From positions 19,043 through 83,042 of the forward strand of contig CAZQFB010000003.1 of the NCBI GenBank assembly GCA_964592525.1: a stretch of DNA of 64,000 nt, given 5' to 3'. The translations under genes and the position numbers were made by a program. Numbering within the stretch: the stretch's first letter is position 1; each line of letters begins with the position of its first letter. This DNA comes from an uncultured Candidatus Saccharibacteria bacterium (GTDB lineage: Bacteria > Patescibacteriota > WWE3 > CAZQFB01). This document shows, in pieces, positions 8,769 through 25,396 of this stretch. The notes beneath the pieces were generated by a model. The model was not told where the DNA came from, made no database searches, and saw nothing but the letters and a program-made list of their open reading frames with translations.

Positions 8769-8846
8769 GGTGACGGTAGCTCAATTGGTTAGAGCGTCCG
8801 CCTGTGGAGCGGAAGGTTGCGGGTTCAATTCCCGTTCGTCACCCCA
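8769..8846 (+). tRNA. tRNA-His (anticodon GTG), with G-1 and encoded CCA
   Basis: Cloverleaf GGTGACGG/..TCGTCAC. Anticodon loop CTGTGGA. The extra 5' G pairs with C73, which is characteristic of tRNA-His. CCA is encoded. Confidence 0.85.
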
Positions 8847-16452: not shown

Positions 16453-16533
16453 ATTAACCCGGCTGATAGTAATCTTATACTTATGTATAAAAACGAACCC
16501 GTTAGCTAGAATATCTAACGGGTTCATGGTGGT

Positions 16534-16737
16534 CTAGAAGACAAGTAGTGCTGTTACTACTACTGCAATACCAACCGCTGTTCCAACCATGCCTTTTAGT
16601 ATAGCTCCTGTAACTATCAGGTGCTCCTCCTCGTCCAGTAACCGAAACAACTTTTCTAGGTTGATCATTGCGTACATAAATCCCAAAAAAGCCATCAAGC
16701 TGCCTACGATCACATACATTCTTTCAACCTCGGTCAC
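16534..16737 (-). CDS. hypothetical small membrane protein (67 aa, 2 TM)
   Basis: ORF with two hydrophobic helices. Terminator-like hairpin lies downstream (16344-16373). Confidence 0.35.
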   Translation of the reverse strand: MTEVERMYVIVGSLMAFLGFMYAMINLEKLFRLLDEEEHLIVTGAILKGMVGTAVGIAVVVTALLVF

Positions 16738-16935
16738 GTCTTCCCCCTAGTGGTGTGTGGTTGATACTTGACAGACTTATAGCAAGTTAGCATCTTGAAG
16801 TCAATTACAAAATTGTAATACCGAACTTCAAACCAAAAAGGACCGTCCTTTTACGGATTTAGTAACCTGGGGAGTTGTAATTGATCTTTCGGCTTTCCTA
16901 GCTTTAGAGTTTAAAAGTATGCGCTTAACTAAGTG

Positions 16936-17007
16936 TACCCCGTGCAGGATTCGAACCTGCGACCAATCGGTTAAGAGCCGAGTGCTCTACCACTGAGCTA
17001 ACGGGGC
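16936..17007 (-). tRNA. tRNA-Lys (anticodon CTT)
   Basis: Reverse complement GCCCCGTTAGCTCAGTGGTAGAGCACTCGGCTCTTAACCGA...TTCGAATCCTGCACGGGGT. Anticodon loop CTCTTAA. Confidence 0.75.
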
Positions 17008-17226
17008 GTAGCCGTAAGATGACGACACCGCTATCCTTTATCACTACTGTGCAATATGGTAACAAAAAGCAGCGTTATTCTCTCCAAAGTTAGGAAACTA
17101 ATATTTACCAGCTAGCATAGCTGCCTATTAACAAGATATTGTACTGTGCAGAAACCATTCTCTCAAGTAGTGTGCTAAAATAAATATGCGGAATGAGACT
17201 AATGCCATTTTCTCCTCCTCCTTGCT

Positions 17227-17274
17227 GGAGGGAGGGTGTCCCGGGGCAGACACCCTCCCTCCATTTTATTTGTC
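17227..17274 (+). terminator. strong intrinsic terminator (perfect 14-bp GC-rich stem + T-rich tail)
   Basis: GGAGGGAGGGTGTC ccggggca GACACCCTCCCTCC followed by ATTTTATTTG. No annotated plus-strand gene lies upstream, so it may end a small RNA or insulate the tRNA array. Confidence 0.55.
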
Positions 17275-17320
17275 TACTTATCCTAAATTATGTATCTTTA
17301 CAGCAGCAAATGTTGCTATT

Positions 17321-17404
17321 GCCCACGTGGCGGAATTGGTAGACGCGCTACGTTCAGAGCGTAGTTTTCGCAAGAAAGTGTAGGTTCGAATCCTATCGTG
17401 GGCA
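17321..17404 (+). tRNA. tRNA-Leu (anticodon CAG)
   Basis: Acceptor GCCCACG/CGTGGGC. Anticodon stem CTACG/CGTAG with loop TTCAGAG. Long variable arm, T-loop TTCGAAT. Confidence 0.85.
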
Positions 17405-17537
17405 CTATCCTTCGCTAAAGCTTCAGATAGCTAGAGAGAAAGACAGCTCTGCCTAGGTGTCTTTACTACTCGTAGTTTTATCAGCGAAGTGTGGACTCCT
17501 CTCGTGGGTACATATTTGGTAAAATAAGGTCTCATCT

Positions 17538-17624
17538 GGGCGAGTGGTGGAATTGGTAGACACGCTACCTTGAGGGGGTAGTGCCAGAAATGGTGTGGAG
17601 GTTCAAGTCCTCTCTCGCCCACCA
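17538..17624 (+). tRNA. tRNA-Leu (anticodon GAG), CCA encoded
   Basis: Acceptor GGGCGAG/CTCGCCC. Anticodon stem CTACC/GGTAG with loop TTGAGGG. Long variable arm. 3' ACCA. Confidence 0.85.
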
Positions 17625-17690
17625 ATAATGAGGTGCAGGTGCTTTACGTCGCTTTAAAAGATGTTTAGTATGTAAGCAATCATTGAACCT

Positions 17691-17763
17691 GCCGAGGTAG
17701 CCAAGGTGGTCACGGCACATGTCTGAAAAACATGGGATGTCAGTTCGACTCTGACCCTCGGCA
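17691..17763 (+). tRNA. tRNA-Phe (anticodon GAA)
   Basis: Acceptor GCCGAGG/CCTCGGC. Anticodon stem CATGT/ACATG with loop CTGAAAA. T-loop TTCGACT. Confidence 0.75.
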
Positions 17764-17767
17764 CACT

Positions 17768-17840
17768 GCGGGAGTAGCTCAGTTGGTAGAGCGTTTCCTT
17801 GCCATGGAAAAGGTCGCGGGTTCAAATCCCGTCTCCCGCT
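17768..17840 (+). tRNA. tRNA-Gly (anticodon GCC)
   Basis: Acceptor GCGGGAG/CTCCCGC. Anticodon stem TTTCC/GGAAA with loop TTGCCAT. T-loop TTCAAAT. Confidence 0.85.
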
Positions 17841-17844
17841 CATA

Positions 17845-18081
17845 ATGTACACGACATACATTATTAGAGGTAGAGCTACTGGCAGGTATTATATTGGTAG
17901 CACAGCTGATTTTGAGAGAAGATTAGCTGAGCATAATCGGGGGCACACTTTATTTGATAAGGTCAACGAACCATTTGAAGTCATTAGGGTTGAAAAGTAT
18001 AGTACAAAGAGAGAAGCGCTTAAGAGAGAAGGGAAGATTAAGAGCTTTAAGGGAGGTAATAGTTTTAGAAAACTAGTTTGA
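17845..18081 (+). CDS. free-standing GIY-YIG nuclease domain protein (78 aa)
   Basis: MYTTYIIRGRATGRYYIGSTADFERRLAEHNRG carries the canonical GIY-YIG core (Y-I...Y-IG-T..R..EHN). Starts 5 nt after the tRNA-Gly 3' end. Confidence 0.75.
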   Translation: MYTTYIIRGRATGRYYIGSTADFERRLAEHNRGHTLFDKVNEPFEVIRVEKYSTKREALKREGKIKSFKGGNSFRKLV

Positions 18082-18133
18082 AGAGCGTCCCGCTTAGCGG
18101 GAAGGTCGCGGGTTCGAATCCCGTCTCCCGCTC
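18082..18133 (+). pseudogene. 3' fragment of a tRNA-Gly-like gene (direct repeat of tRNA-Gly 3' end; putative att or degraded tandem tRNA)
   Basis: AAGGTCGCGGGTTCgAATCCCGTCTCCCGCTC matches tRNA-Gly positions 17810-17841 at 31/32 nt. It is preceded by the D-stem remnant GAGCG and a degenerate anticodon arm. There is no 5' acceptor or D-arm half. Confidence 0.6.
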
Positions 18134-18213
18134 TGGTGCTAAAATGATCTTGGGAATCACTATCCCACTTATGCTTATCAATATCTCAATTATTAAACAA
18201 AGAAAGGAAAATC

Positions 18214-18549
18214 ATGACCGATGTACATGACGTTACGGTGATTTATAACAATCTGGAGGAATACCTTAACGAGCAAGAAAGAGAAAATATTAATCACCTT
18301 ATTACTAATTTTTGTTTAAAAATCAGTCGGCAAGAAGAGATAGAAAAAATTGAGGTCAGTGCAACAGTACAAAAAAACCCTGTAGGCGAAGCTAACACTT
18401 TTCAAATTACCACCAAGCTGAATTTTTTTTCGGGTGAATATTTGGTTGCCCATGCCGGTGGTTGGGAGCTTGATTTGGCTATTAGAGAAGCATTAAAGAG
18501 ATTGGAAAAGCAGGAGAGAAGAAAACACCAACAAAAAGTTGACCATTAA
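18214..18549 (+). CDS. hpf: ribosome hibernation promoting factor / RaiA-family protein (short form)
   Basis: C-terminal ...TTKLNFFSGEYLVAHAGGWELDLAIREALKRLEKQERRKHQQK parallels the HPF pattern (..GGE.HA.AE..DMYAAID.L.DKL.RQL.KHKDK). Confidence 0.55.
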   Translation: MTDVHDVTVIYNNLEEYLNEQERENINHLITNFCLKISRQEEIEKIEVSATVQKNPVGEANTFQITTKLNFFSGEYLVAHAGGWELDLAIREALKRLEKQERRKHQQKVDH

Positions 18550-18561
18550 TATAAATACCTG

Positions 18562-18633
18562 TGAGCGGTACTGGACTCGAACCAGTGACCTTTCGGATGT
18601 AAGCCGAATGCTCTACCAACTGAGCTAACCGCT
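18562..18633 (-). tRNA. tRNA-Val (anticodon TAC)
   Basis: Reverse complement GAGCGGTTAGCTCAGTTGGTAGAGCATTCGGCTTACATCCGAAAGGTCACTGGTTCGAGTCCAGTACCGCTC. Anticodon loop CTTACAT. Confidence 0.8.
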
Positions 18634-18691
18634 CCAATTAGGCTATTTTAACAAAATATAGCCTCTCTACCCAAATCATGAGTGCTATACT

Positions 18692-19378
18692 TTGACTATT
18701 GCCATGAACAAAAAAGTAAAGCCCCTAGCCCCACAATTTAATTATACTAATCCTTTTAATATTGAGGCGACAGTTAATTTAACTAGTATTTTACTAACCC
18801 TGCTGTTATTGATCATAGCTTTTTGTGGTGGTTGGTTAACAGCTTACTTCATTAAGCTAAACGACACCAAGATACCAGCATATCTTCAGCTACAAAATCA
18901 TAACAACACTTCTCTCACCGAGGCTGTGAAAACAGAAATACCTGGACAGATACCTGGTGCTTGGGTGCGTTATGTCAACAAAGAGCATCACTTCTCGCTA
19001 CTTTTCCCTCCAACTACTAGTGATGTTCGCCTGCTTAATTACCCCCCAGTGCTAACTGATTACACCAAAAATCAGGTGCCTAATGTTATGCTTCGGGTGC
19101 AACTTAAACTAGTTCCCGAAAACTTTAACAAAGAGCAAGAGCTTAAACATAAATTATTGCTCACTTCAGAAAACCAAACCATCGCCTCACGAGAGGCTTA
19201 TAAATATGAATACTTAGTAACGGAAGGATTCCACGAAGTACATTTCCTCGTGCCAATTACGTCATCGGATTACCTGATTATGTCTTATCTTTATCACCCC
19301 GTGAAGACAACCGAAGCAGAAAAAAGTGAACTATCAACTATTATTAACACTTTACAGTTTGAGCACCAGACCCTCTAA
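18692..19378 (+). CDS. hypothetical membrane-anchored extracytoplasmic protein (228 aa)
   Basis: Single N-terminal TM (ILLTLLLLIIAFCGGWLTAYFI), then a soluble domain without recognisable motifs. Sits immediately upstream of the Fic gene. Confidence 0.4.
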   Translation: MTIAMNKKVKPLAPQFNYTNPFNIEATVNLTSILLTLLLLIIAFCGGWLTAYFIKLNDTKIPAYLQLQNHNNTSLTEAVKTEIPGQIPGAWVRYVNKEHHFSLLFPPTTSDVRLLNYPPVLTDYTKNQVPNVMLRVQLKLVPENFNKEQELKHKLLLTSENQTIASREAYKYEYLVTEGFHEVHFLVPITSSDYLIMSYLYHPVKTTEAEKSELSTIINTLQFEHQTL

Positions 19379-19410: not shown

Positions 19411-20478
19411 ATGTTTAGACCTAATTACCAAATATCCAATAAAGTACTGAATAATTTAATGCGAATTGCGACCTTAAAAACATTTATTGAGCAGTCAAAT
19501 ATTGTCCCTAAGCAAGAGATAATTCTTAAGCGCAAAGCGGCTATCAGAATGGCAGCCAGCTCTACAGCGATAGAAGGAAATGTTCTTAATGAAAACGAGG
19601 TTGAACGTGTTTTTGAAGGTAAACACACCCACGCCCCAGATAAAGACGCTTTAGAGGTAAAAAACTATAAACGAGGGATTGAGTTTGTCAATAAAATATT
19701 AGTGGATAATCTGAAATTAGATCATCACTTGGTTCTACATATTCATAAAATATTAATGGCGGGTTTGTTGCCTGATGAGAAGTTAGGCAAATATCGCTCT
19801 GGTCCGGTGTATGTGGTTAATTTAGGAGCTACGGCTAAAAACGATAAACTTCTTTACACTGCCCCCAAAGCGGAAGAAGTACGACATCATGTGGGGGATT
19901 TACTTAAATGGGTGGATGAAGCTAAAAGCGAGGAATTATCATTAGTTATCATTGCTGCCTTGTTTCATTACCAATTTGTGACCATCCATCCCTTTACAGA
20001 TGGTAACGGCAGAACAACCCGTCTACTCACTACCTACCTCTTATATCAAGGCGGTTTGGATCTGGATAAGATCTATGCACTAGATTCTTATTATAACCAA
20101 GACCGCTTAGAGTACTATAAACAGTTGGATGTTGGTAAGACCTTTGCCCTTAGGAAAAAAGCTAATTTAACTCCTTGGTTAGAGTACTTTACCACTGGTT
20201 TTGTGTGGGAACTGGAAAGAATAAGAGAACAAATCCATATTCTCAAAGTGCAAACTAAAGATGATCAACACCAGACTATCTACTTGGATCAAGATGAAAT
20301 TAGAATCATTGATTTTTTAGCCAGTATGGGTCGTATAACTAGTACTGACGTGATGGATATCTTAAAGGTTTCTAAAAGATCGGCGCAATTAAAGATCAAA
20401 GAATTACTGGATAACGGCTTGATAGAAAAAAGAAGCCAGGGACCAGCCAGCTATTATGTAATGGTCAACAAGCATTAA
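19411..20478 (+). CDS. Fic-family protein (AMPylase type) with N-terminal inhibitory motif and C-terminal winged-HTH
   Basis: Fic active-site motif HPFTDGNGRTTR. N-terminal inhibitory motif SSTAIEGN (S/TxxxEG/N). C-terminal HTH-like ...DVMDILKVSKRSAQLKIKELLDNGLIEK. Confidence 0.8.
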   Translation: MFRPNYQISNKVLNNLMRIATLKTFIEQSNIVPKQEIILKRKAAIRMAASSTAIEGNVLNENEVERVFEGKHTHAPDKDALEVKNYKRGIEFVNKILVDNLKLDHHLVLHIHKILMAGLLPDEKLGKYRSGPVYVVNLGATAKNDKLLYTAPKAEEVRHHVGDLLKWVDEAKSEELSLVIIAALFHYQFVTIHPFTDGNGRTTRLLTTYLLYQGGLDLDKIYALDSYYNQDRLEYYKQLDVGKTFALRKKANLTPWLEYFTTGFVWELERIREQIHILKVQTKDDQHQTIYLDQDEIRIIDFLASMGRITSTDVMDILKVSKRSAQLKIKELLDNGLIEKRSQGPASYYVMVNKH

Positions 20479-24284: not shown

Positions 24285-24405
24285 CTTTTATCAAGAGTGC
24301 GGTTAGAGATTTGGCTCAATGACCCGCCGGCAACCAATGCTTTAGCATCAGGTGCCTCCGCCAAAAACGATGAGAGCAAGCCTTAGACTAATCCCTTGAT
24401 AAAAG
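24285..24405 (+). promoter_or_regulatory. SAM-I (S-box) riboswitch candidate in metK leader
   Basis: P1 halves CTTTTATCAAG (24285-24295) and CTTGATAAAAG (24395-24405). Core resembles the S-box consensus (UUAUCAAGAG...GAUUUGGCUCAAUGACCCGCCGGCAACC...GGUGCC). Lies immediately 5' of the SAM synthetase gene. Confidence 0.55.
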
Positions 24406-24439: not shown

Positions 24440-25396
24440 ATGTCTAAATTAATAGCTGAAGCAGTATCTTTTATGCATCCTGATAAAATCTGCGACCAAT
24501 TTTCTGATCTGTTACTAGATGAGTATTTAAAGCAAGATCCCAGGTCACGTGTGGCCGTAGAATGTGTGGGAGGTCATGGCCACCTTTCATTATTTGGGGA
24601 AGTAACCTCTCAAGCGCAACTGGATGCTGCTGCGGTTGCTCGTAAATATTACCAAGCACTAACCGGGGAGGATATTGAGGTCAATTCATATTTAAGCCAA
24701 CAATCGGCTGATATTGCACAGGGTGTAAATTTGGGTGGTGCTGGTGATCAGGGAATCATGATCGGTTATGCTTGTAGTGAAAACAAACTACTTCTACCCC
24801 AAGAAATGTATCTTGCCAGAAAATTGCTTAAAGGACTTAAGGTTGATGCTAAATCACAGGTGGTGATGAATGGTTCTAAGGTAGAGTCTGTAGTGATTTC
24901 AGTTCAAGGTAAAGAGCAAAAGGAATTAGTTGATTATGTTTTGAATCTTGGCATAAATGTAGATAAAAATCATATCTATGCTAATCAGACGGGCAAGTTT
25001 GAGCTTGGGGGATTTGAAGCCGATAGTGGGTGTACGGGTAGAAAGATTGTAGTAGATGCTTACGGACCACGAGTGCCTGTTGGTGGGGGTGCTTTTTCTG
25101 GTAAAGATCCTTCTAAAGTAGATCGTTCATCTGCCTATATGGCACGTTGGATAGCCATTCAGTTATTGCATGAATATGATGCCAAAGAGACATTAGTCCG
25201 ACTTGGATACGTCATTGGTAAGGCAGAACCTTTAATGAAACAAGCCGTTGTTGATGGCAAAGAAATAAACCTTGCTTATGATTGCCGACCAACTGCAATT
25301 ATAGAAAGATTTGATCTTCTAAGACCCATTTATCTGGATACAGCCAAAAATGGTCACTTCGGGAGGAAAGAGCTGCCTTGGGAAAAATTATCTTAA
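24440..25396 (+). CDS. metK: S-adenosylmethionine synthetase (MetK), shortened 318-aa form
   Basis: MetK motifs present: HPDKICDQ, GAGDQGIMIGYA, DAKSQV, GGFEADSGCTGRKIVVDAYG...GGGAFSGKDPSKVDRSSAY, LRPIY..TAKNGHFGR. The central region is about 65 aa shorter than in E. coli MetK. Confidence 0.8.
   Translation: MSKLIAEAVSFMHPDKICDQFSDLLLDEYLKQDPRSRVAVECVGGHGHLSLFGEVTSQAQLDAAAVARKYYQALTGEDIEVNSYLSQQSADIAQGVNLGGAGDQGIMIGYACSENKLLLPQEMYLARKLLKGLKVDAKSQVVMNGSKVESVVISVQGKEQKELVDYVLNLGINVDKNHIYANQTGKFELGGFEADSGCTGRKIVVDAYGPRVPVGGGAFSGKDPSKVDRSSAYMARWIAIQLLHEYDAKETLVRLGYVIGKAEPLMKQAVVDGKEINLAYDCRPTAIIERFDLLRPIYLDTAKNGHFGRKELPWEKLS

Follow-up and report, generated by a model that had tools for sequence, protein, structure and literature searches.

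The window analysed here is a 64,000-nucleotide (nt) stretch of a bacterial chromosome (contig CAZQFB010000003.1, from an uncultured Candidatus Saccharibacteria bacterium), in which a small gene for a GIY-YIG-type nuclease lies between an intact tRNA-Gly(GCC) gene and a partial copy of that tRNA (the pseudo-tRNA or pseudo-copy). Within the partial copy, a short GC-rich hairpin, termed hairpin H, stands where the anticodon arm would be. The locus comprises the following features:

17768-17841, + strand: intact tRNA-Gly(GCC) (ARAGORN call; Rfam tRNA, 73.7 bits)
17810-17841, + strand: repeat copy 1, made up of the last anticodon-stem base, variable loop, T arm and acceptor 3' strand of the intact tRNA (pattern search)
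17845-18081, + strand: gene for a predicted minimal GIY-YIG nuclease of 78 amino acids (aa), UPF0213/Slx1-like (open reading frame (ORF) list; PF01541; Protein Data Bank profile match; AlphaFold2 (AF2)/Foldseek)
18073-18087 (approximate), + strand: decayed D-arm remnant of the pseudo-tRNA, CT-AGTTTGAAGAGCG versus CTCAGTTGGTAGAGCG (pairwise alignment with the intact tRNA)
18088-18102, + strand: hairpin H, TCCCGC-TTA-GCGGGA (read from the sequence)
18102-18133, + strand: repeat copy 2, made up of the variable loop, T arm (GCGGG-TTCGAAT-CCCGT) and acceptor 3' strand of the pseudo-tRNA (pattern search)

The tRNA-Gly(GCC) gene, already recognized as intact in a preliminary description of the locus, is the final member of a co-oriented Leu(CAG)-Leu(GAG)-Phe(GAA)-Gly(GCC) array (17321-17841, ARAGORN), and its CCA end is not encoded. 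That description placed the nuclease ORF 5 nt downstream; the ATG in fact lies 3 nt past the ARAGORN end of the tRNA, which is 4 nt past the discriminator base. We found no Shine-Dalgarno sequence for this ORF, and a promoter scan gave no promoter of its own. The 3' part of the tRNA recurs as a 32-mer, AAGGTCGCGGGTTC[A/G]AATCCCGTCTCCCGCTC, with exactly two occurrences in the window (17810-17841 and 18102-18133). As first reported, the copies agree at 31 of 32 positions, the exception being an A at 17824 versus a G at 18116, and no match arose by chance in 100 dinucleotide shuffles. Between the repeats, in an insert of ~290 bp, the nuclease gene is the only ORF, with no integrase or other gene. 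It is the only GIY-YIG ORF of the window, the 3' copy beside it is the sole tRNA fragment outside tRNA genes in the 64 kb, and the strict H motif has its one copy at 18088-18102. One of the 11 tRNA genes in the window carries such a cassette.

The anticodon arm of the pseudo-tRNA, at first described as degenerate, is a clean swap: hairpin H, with a perfect 6-bp stem and a 3-nt loop, takes the place of the 17-nt arm exactly, between AGAGCG and AGGTC. AGAGCG (18082-18087) is the 3' strand of the D stem, and the D-arm remnant to which it belongs overlaps the last codons of the ORF and its TGA stop. No tRNA is called at the fragment by either ARAGORN or Rfam, which agrees with its original characterization as lacking a 5' half and with the expectation that it would not fold as one; on the same grounds, and since its predicted closing stem is found with this tRNA-Gly only, we rejected a suppressor or otherwise odd tRNA, or a minihelix. 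A group I intron was rejected as well, since the tRNA is intact and an Rfam search of 16500-19000 returned no intron family at E<=1.

Judged by its sequence, the encoded protein is a minimal UPF0213/Slx1-like nuclease. Its assignment to the GIY-YIG superfamily, proposed from the outset, holds with a wide margin (PF01541, E 1.3e-14, 54.7 bits against a curated cut-off of 22.6). A profile built from the protein and its first ten homologues matched best the UPF0213 protein BH0048 (1zg2, E 9.1e-12), then EF2693 (1ywl, E 6.9e-11) and eukaryotic SLX1 (E 2.4e-6). The AF2 model, with a predicted local distance difference test score (pLDDT) of 87, has the GIY-YIG fold of a three-stranded sheet with helices (elements E-E-H-H-E-H), and Foldseek placed Slx1 first (query TM-score, TMq, 0.70-0.72), followed by UPF0213 and the I-TevI catalytic domain, with UvrC domains also among the matches. 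Slx1 itself cuts branched DNA in a structure-selective manner. The catalytic residues Y5, Y16, R26, H30 and E62 are all present and are 97-100% conserved in 107 distinct relatives; from these residues, the nuclease looks active. Its 78 aa form a single domain and leave no space for a DNA-binding domain. The match to TIGR01453 reached 21.3 bits, under the cut-off of 56. We also rejected membership of the SegB group: the protein has 78 aa and no extra domain, BLASTP against T4 SegB gave E 0.45, and hhalign gave a probability of 20% over 25 columns, the alignment being confined to the N-terminal GIY..YIG stretch. Counted as representatives of 50%-identity clusters, the family has 22,387 members at E<=1e-3 and 4,958 at E<=1e-10.

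The layout of the window locus recurs beside tRNA genes in many other genomes. We fetched about 160 loci, 80 from one-genome-per-species contigs and 80 from metagenomes, and annotated them with tblastn, ARAGORN and short-word BLAST. A co-oriented tRNA gene lies within 150 nt of the ORF in 25 of the 28 closest genome matches and in 72 of 87 metagenome ORF copies, mostly at 0-30 nt; from the density of tRNA genes in the rest of these loci, ~1.5% would be expected. Weaker genome matches, from haloarchaea, alphaproteobacteria and actinobacteria, lie mostly away from tRNA genes (8 of 52 within 150 nt, 12 of 52 within 200 nt), and the tRNA association therefore defines a clade within UPF0213. Of 100 ORFs beside a tRNA, 90 are flanked on their other side by a partial copy of it, a few of these loci representing repeated sampling of the same species. 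Ser (26), Gly (23) and Tyr (9) are the commonest isotypes in the metagenome set, with Val, Ile, Pro, Ala, Arg, Asp, Glu, Lys, Leu, Asn, Thr, Gln, Phe and Met represented as well; named hosts belong to the Patescibacteria, Bacteroidota, Acidobacteriota, Armatimonadota, Verrucomicrobiota, Elusimicrobia and Proteobacteria. Identity between pseudo-copy and local tRNA is mostly 95-100%, and that of the ORFs between loci only 35-55%. No further conserved gene accompanies the ORF.

One relative (P0008, 51% identical) illustrates the pattern on nine contigs. Upstream of its gene lies a 5' copy of tRNA-Gly(CCC) in which the anticodon arm has given way to CCCCGCC-GAC-GGCGGGG, and its stop codon falls within the intact tRNA-Gly(CCC). 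Database entries form an independent sample that agrees with the tRNA adjacency: in many gene calls of the family, the N or C terminus is extended by translated tRNA or hairpin sequence (for example GSNP, RFES, VRIP, GGVPPEAG and ERWQSG). Two further entries of 205-214 aa (P0135 and P0136) are pairs of tandem GIY-YIG copies that gene callers have fused through a tRNA-like spacer. In aggregate, it is well supported that the window locus belongs to a large family of one-gene cassettes, each set between an intact tRNA and a partial copy that hairpin H disables. The first of two readings offered in the preliminary description, a minimal GIY-YIG cassette tied to a tRNA gene and bounded by repeats, is upheld in its core by relatives with the same layout; its counter-scenario, in which relatives would sit at non-tRNA loci without a repeat, is not what we see, as relatives of 35-55% identity are nearly always tRNA-adjacent with a partial copy on the far side.

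Hairpin H is shared across this family and is almost always present in the pseudo-copy, with the consensus YCCCGCC-N2-4-GGCGGGR. The density of GC-rich hairpins is 4.15 per kb up to 130 nt from the ORFs versus 0.64 per kb at distances above 500 nt. For the H motif (CCCGCC..GGCGGG and close variants) the densities are 1.63 versus 0.10 per kb, a 16-fold difference, and the motif stands beside the ORF in 75 of 106 related loci. Among class-I pseudo-copies with both flanks placed, the hairpin fills the gap between D arm and variable loop in 24 of 24 cases, flush and at approximately the length of the replaced arm. At Ser, Tyr and Thr loci, H is inserted in the D loop (after position 14), the anticodon loop (after 35/36) or the T loop (between TTC and GAAT). 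The stem is conserved, its outer pair covaries (T..A or C..G) and the loop is free. Three sequence variants were distinguished:

TCCCGA..TCGGGA: Ala, Val, Ile and Arg loci in a Saccharibacteria/Bacteroidota clade
TTCCGCC-AAA-GGCGGAA: one Ser(CGA) clade
YCCCGCC..GGCGGGR: Gly, Ser, Tyr, Thr, Pro, Glu and Ala loci

Because the H variant tracks the ORF clade and not the isotype, H belongs to the cassette rather than to the tRNA. A derivation of H from the acceptor stem was rejected, as the same hairpin types are found at tRNA-Ile, tRNA-Val and tRNA-Arg loci. Some pseudo-copies hold two to three H units (L116, L112 and L162), and L179 has a pseudo-copy with a decayed older H and, in its T loop, a fresh and perfect one, which the relative L170 lacks. 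The second initial reading, in which a homing-endonuclease gene struck the second gene of a tandem tRNA-Gly pair, is disfavoured by a layout found at at least 14 isotypes and by an H variant that follows the ORF lineage.

The cassettes occur in two mirror configurations. In configuration A, to which the window belongs, an intact tRNA is followed by the ORF and then by a pseudo-copy of D arm, H and 3' end (21 of 23 with a partial copy). In configuration B, a pseudo-copy that runs from position 1 through the D arm and H into the T loop is followed by the ORF and the intact tRNA (69 of 77 with a partial copy). The 5' part of the tRNA is duplicated in 69 of 90 relatives, about three quarters, and the 3' part in the remainder. 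This asymmetry, together with the missing integrase and the element-specific hairpin of the pseudo-copy, makes the label of attL/attR-like ends, which had been attached to the repeats, a misleading one. Both configurations are present within single ORF clades and at a conserved Phe-Gly array, where the window and L160 have A and L106, L140, L163 and L101 have B. Gene and tRNA are closely packed: the start codon lies 1-6 nt past the tRNA in one third of configuration A cases, and 40 of 67 configuration B ORFs stop 10-24 nt into the intact tRNA, 29 of them via the TAG of U8-A9-G10 or of the D loop. Since these ORFs end inside the tRNA, tRNA processing and translation must interact.

At many loci, pseudo-copies flank the tRNA on both sides, or ORF and pseudo-copy form tandem arrays (L024, L022, L113 and L102). 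The array of L024 (1385-3805), on a complete Bacteroidota chromosome assembled from a metagenome, has seven tandem units of ORF plus pseudo-tRNA with a period of 336 nt after a single tRNA-Val(TAC). There are also ORF-less pseudo-tRNA arrays, each unit running from D loop to CCA over ~63 nt with a hairpin, which directly follow a tRNA (L015 2880-2964, L002, L005 and L009); their unit number varies between near-identical strains.

Several side observations concern the pseudo-tRNAs and their neighbours. One Gottesmanbacteria strain has a 767-nt insertion after tRNA-Gly(CCC) (L002 3311-4077) that another strain (L003) does not have; it is bounded by an 8-nt repeat (CCGCTCCA), starts with a hairpin-bearing 3' part of a pseudo-tRNA and contains a 51-aa ORF that is not GIY-YIG. 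Full-length hairpin-bearing pseudo-tRNAs at L160 2234-2304 and L018 2726-2798 are reported by ARAGORN as 'tRNA-???' with 2-nt anticodons, and the former also exceeds the Rfam tRNA threshold (44.3 bits). Such full-length copies are a likely source of spurious tRNA annotations; more broadly, pseudo-copies may underlie partial or 'undetermined' tRNA calls (ARAGORN tRNA-???) and GIY-YIG gene calls that over-extend through a tRNA. Some intact tRNA-Gly genes beside cassettes have non-canonical T loops (AGCGTAA, TCCAATT and TCCGACT versus TTCRAAT; L130 1664-1736, L101 and L091), and the tRNA-Gly of L130 reaches only 53 bits in Rfam.

Around the cassette, the window holds housekeeping genes, among them those for a class I aminoacyl-tRNA synthetase, an aldolase and metK, at a G+C content of 39.8%. 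A perfect 15-bp GC-rich stem-loop with a T run (17226-17263, + strand), ~60 nt 5' of the tRNA array, is terminator-like for the upstream unit. On the 3' side, the cassette is followed by a 111-aa ORF (18214-18549, + strand) with a weak likeness to RaiA/HPF (PF02482, 20.2 bits, under the cut-off), for which 5.8 billion proteins contain two homologues only. Two genes 3' of the cassette lies a gene for a Fic/DOC-domain protein with a C-terminal winged-helix (MarR/TrmB-like) domain (19411-20478, + strand). A SAM riboswitch (RF00162, 54.2 bits; 24285-24376, + strand) directly precedes metK (24440-25396), whose product has S-adenosylmethionine synthetase domains.

To account for the recurrent layout, we tentatively put first a one-gene selfish cassette of the homing type, which would persist and spread by recombination with the halves of tRNA genes as homology arms; its mobility and the cleavage activity behind it are what we infer from the loci. 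The two tRNA-like flanks would act as the arms. Recombination with a resident tRNA gene through its 3' part (positions 44-76) would yield configuration A, and through its 5' part (positions 1-26) configuration B. Breaks made by the nuclease in or near tRNA genes would probably stimulate this exchange, or else the enzyme may resolve joint molecules. Either route would regenerate a functional tRNA, and we propose that the cassette is therefore without cost to the host. The displaced or extra copy would bear H, which would move together with the ORF. By interrupting the direct repeat, H may prevent the cassette from being looped out, and it may bar the copy from tRNA function and from serving as a target. 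In this role, H would hold the direct repeats at roughly 25 and 33 nt, lengths that are close to the minimum for RecA-type recombination. Near-universal D-arm and T-arm boxes might permit occasional jumps between isotypes, after which gene conversion would bring the flanks into line with the local tRNA. The ORF probably shares its transcript with the tRNA array and is freed from it by tRNA processing.

Traces of exchange are present at several loci, the new H of L179 and the tandem arrays among them. Pseudo-copies are homogenized with the local tRNA, as their near identity to it beside far more divergent ORFs shows. The pseudo-copies of L022 are mosaics; in Parafilimonas, the copies are mosaics of each other and point to gene conversion. 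At L130, the T arm and acceptor strand of the pseudo-copy derive from a different tRNA-Gly than the adjacent one, so either the cassette or the tRNA came from elsewhere. The T-loop G of the window fragment (18116) is shared with the tRNA-Gly 3' end found before the raiA-like gene in L089, whereas the intact window tRNA has an A; this single shared base is compatible with co-conversion of the tRNA 3' part and offers a weak hint of it. Within the window, the tRNA-Gly D arm (17775-17792, + strand) is identical at 18 of 18 positions to that of tRNA-Val(TAC) (18610-18627, - strand), and its variable loop plus T arm (17810-17832) matches tRNA-His at 8813-8835 at 21 of 23. On sequence grounds, such identities could provide microhomology for recombination.

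Several observations weigh against this selfish-cassette explanation. In Chitinophagaceae, the cassette occupies the same place across genera, in the order UDG, pseudo-copy, tRNA-Arg(UCU), terminator, ORF, pseudo-copy and MatE, which implies long vertical residence. The encoded proteins there are 67-99% identical, and the cassette between UDG and MatE has opposite orientations relative to those flanks in L170-L177 and L178-L185. Three traced proteins (P0008, P0108 and P0030) each lie at one fixed locus in all their contigs. Among the loci and contigs examined, we found no empty site and no within-species polymorphism for presence or absence of the ORF; a search for an empty site through the raiA-like protein led to two contigs, L088 and L089, that are too short or rearranged, the tRNA-Gly 3' end of L089 lying at the contig edge. 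Relatives are scarce in carriers of mobility, with 3 partial matches among 2.9 M viral contigs (IMG/VR), 12 weak matches in phage genomes and none in plasmids. The outer flank is not clearly more tRNA-like than the inner remnant (means 0.89 vs 0.85; 14 vs 8, with 7 ties), and no co-conversion gradient around the ORF was seen between L002 and L003. Viewed from its sequence, the 78-aa catalytic domain has no evident way to locate tRNA genes. If the nuclease cuts tRNA genes, the adjacent intact tRNA would be a target too, and a role as mere homology breaker does not account for the fixed sequence of H.

Much of this stability would be expected of a domesticated nuclease that serves the host, is inherited vertically and no longer moves, an explanation that we regard as doubtful. 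Its pseudo-tRNA and hairpin would be old by-products or regulatory parts, and the enzyme might, for example, process recombination or replication intermediates or R-loops at highly transcribed tRNA genes, or guard those genes against integrating elements. The conserved Chitinophagaceae locus with its similar proteins, the single locus of each traced protein and the absence from plasmids and near-absence from phages all speak for it. So do the strict conservation of the catalytic residues, the huge size of the family even at the stricter threshold and the distant UPF0213 relatives that are not tRNA-adjacent (44 of 52 weaker genome matches); in addition, a 2006 survey linked prokaryotic Slx1-like genes to tRNA-modifying methyltransferases (PMC1564403). 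A domesticated gene leaves unexplained, however, why the flank copies whichever tRNA adjoins it, and equally the many isotypes, the mirror configurations within single clades, the heterologous copy of L130, the tandem arrays and the patchy occurrence, which in the window extends to only one tRNA gene in 11.

Bolder, and in our estimate unlikely, is the view that the GIY-YIG protein and H together constitute an unrecognized mobile system that has neither a DNA-binding domain nor a recombinase. Such a system would find tRNA genes by structure, as cloverleaf- or cruciform-prone, highly transcribed DNA, and would use the D and T boxes as portable arms. H, plugged into the loops of the extra copy, would immunize and stabilize the element's own flank while it hops between isotypes and phyla. 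If this is true, the large UPF0213-like clade would consist of tRNA-gene parasites.

A related proposal, which we consider quite unlikely, makes H the cis-acting site of the enzyme in a two-component system of nuclease and palindrome, in which palindromes are actively plugged into the loops of tRNA copies, H being the unit that moves or is targeted and the pseudo-tRNA the product. The conserved, covarying stem with its free loop would fit, as would the confinement of H to D, anticodon and T loops or to replacement of the anticodon arm, the fresh T-loop H beside an older decayed one at L179, the loci with two to three H units and the ORF-less H-bearing arrays that change copy number between strains. 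GIY-YIG enzymes, however, hydrolyse DNA and do not transfer strands on their own. H is also not dispersed (one copy in 64 kb; 0.10 per kb away from ORFs), and common descent with gene conversion could equally keep it uniform.

Explanations at the level of RNA strike us as very unlikely. Here the hairpin-bearing tRNA-like RNA would be a decoy, antitoxin or regulator of a nuclease acting on tRNA or other RNA, in the style of type III toxin-antitoxin systems, or a module for mRNA processing or stability. In its favour, the ORF abuts the tRNA and lacks its own promoter and Shine-Dalgarno sequence, configuration B ORFs commonly end within the tRNA, tandem pseudo-tRNA repeats resemble antitoxin RNA arrays, and the window fragment folds stably as RNA (-27.4 kcal/mol, z -2.6). 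Yet the pseudo-copy mimics the adjacent tRNA and not one fixed target, it is usually truncated with one acceptor strand gone, the predicted closing stem AGAGCG/CGCUCU is peculiar to the window's tRNA-Gly and not general, and the GIY-YIG superfamily and closest structures are DNA nucleases. We deem it highly improbable that the locus is an ordinary relic, either the att duplication of a decayed island or a tandem tRNA-Gly pair that a stray homing-endonuclease gene struck. An insert bounded by a 32-nt direct repeat of the 3' part of a tRNA is the classic attL/attR picture, and integration-derived tRNA fragments are common in prokaryotes (PMC9897764), but an insert of this size with no integrase or other gene, the predominant duplication of the 5' half, a conserved hairpin swapped for the anticodon arm in unrelated isotypes and some 100 recurrences of the layout argue otherwise.

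The cassette recalls several known systems, in its hairpin and in avoiding harm by duplication as integrase att sites do. REP/RAYT and IS200/IS605 elements likewise consist of a single small nuclease gene flanked by palindromic hairpins with conserved stems and unconserved loops. They use HUH/Y1 transposases, which act through covalent intermediates, and have their hairpins scattered over the whole genome, whereas the cassette has a hydrolytic GIY-YIG nuclease and hairpins only in the pseudo-tRNAs beside the gene. With integrase-borne islands and prophages it shares the position at a tRNA gene, the regenerated gene and the displaced partial tRNA copy at the far end, and in the window both ends carry the 3' part of the tRNA as a direct repeat, as is typical of them. 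It differs in having no tyrosine or serine recombinase, in its size of ~0.3 kb rather than kilobases, in that either tRNA half may be duplicated and in the hairpin-rebuilt pseudo-copy. Group I introns in bacterial tRNA genes, with or without homing-endonuclease genes and including those of Patescibacteria (PMC13011429; PMC3984707), are also small selfish insertions in tRNA loops whose cost to the host is neutralized; in the cassette, by contrast, no ribozyme was found, the tRNA is uninterrupted and neutrality would come from duplication instead of splicing. The swap of a hairpin for the anticodon arm may be a new means to neutralize a duplicated essential RNA gene.

The protein itself is closest to the UPF0213/YhbQ/Slx1-like group (1zg2, 1ywl), with which it shares the best sequence and fold matches, single-domain size and catalytic residues. 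Structures of UPF0213/YhbQ-like proteins have been solved since 2005, and to our knowledge no role has been assigned to these minimal bacterial GIY-YIG proteins. For the group at large, the 2006 survey (Dunin-Horkawicz et al., PMC1564403) described methyltransferase links but neither tRNA-gene nesting nor a pseudo-tRNA or hairpin, and distant members lie mostly away from tRNA genes. For this orphan family, tRNA nesting suggests a testable hypothesis, namely tRNA-gene-directed recombination or homing. In full-text literature searches, we came across no account of minimal GIY-YIG genes flanked by tRNAs and hairpin-bearing pseudo-tRNAs, and the arrangement goes unmentioned in the superfamily survey (PMC1564403), a survey of prokaryotic tRNA fragments (PMC9897764) and a 2026 survey of Patescibacteria tRNAs (PMC13011429), the last of which does not mention GIY-YIG. 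The early impression of an unusual locus is half right: with thousands of family members the window locus is ordinary among its kin, while the family-level pattern appears to be undescribed.

The closest functional parallel is SegB, a GIY-YIG enzyme of the T4/T6 tRNA cluster that recognizes a T-arm motif, cuts inside tRNA genes, homes, spreads by recombination through flanking tRNA homology and brings about a tandem amplification of tRNA plus segB that depends on recombination (PMC2330249; PMC13096335). Both systems have a GIY-YIG gene among tRNA genes irrespective of isotype, and both form tandem arrays of tRNA and nuclease. SegB, however, has 221 aa and a DNA-binding part where the window protein is a bare 78-aa catalytic domain, it is phage-borne where the cassette family is chromosomal and nearly absent from viral contigs, and its loci are without hairpin-plugged pseudo-tRNAs. 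By analogy, the cassette would work most like these SegB-type free-standing endonuclease genes of tRNA clusters, and cleavage of tRNA genes is then the activity we would infer for it. The findings may extend the SegB result to bacterial chromosomes, with GIY-YIG remodelling of tRNA loci in many phyla, including the genome-reduced Patescibacteria.

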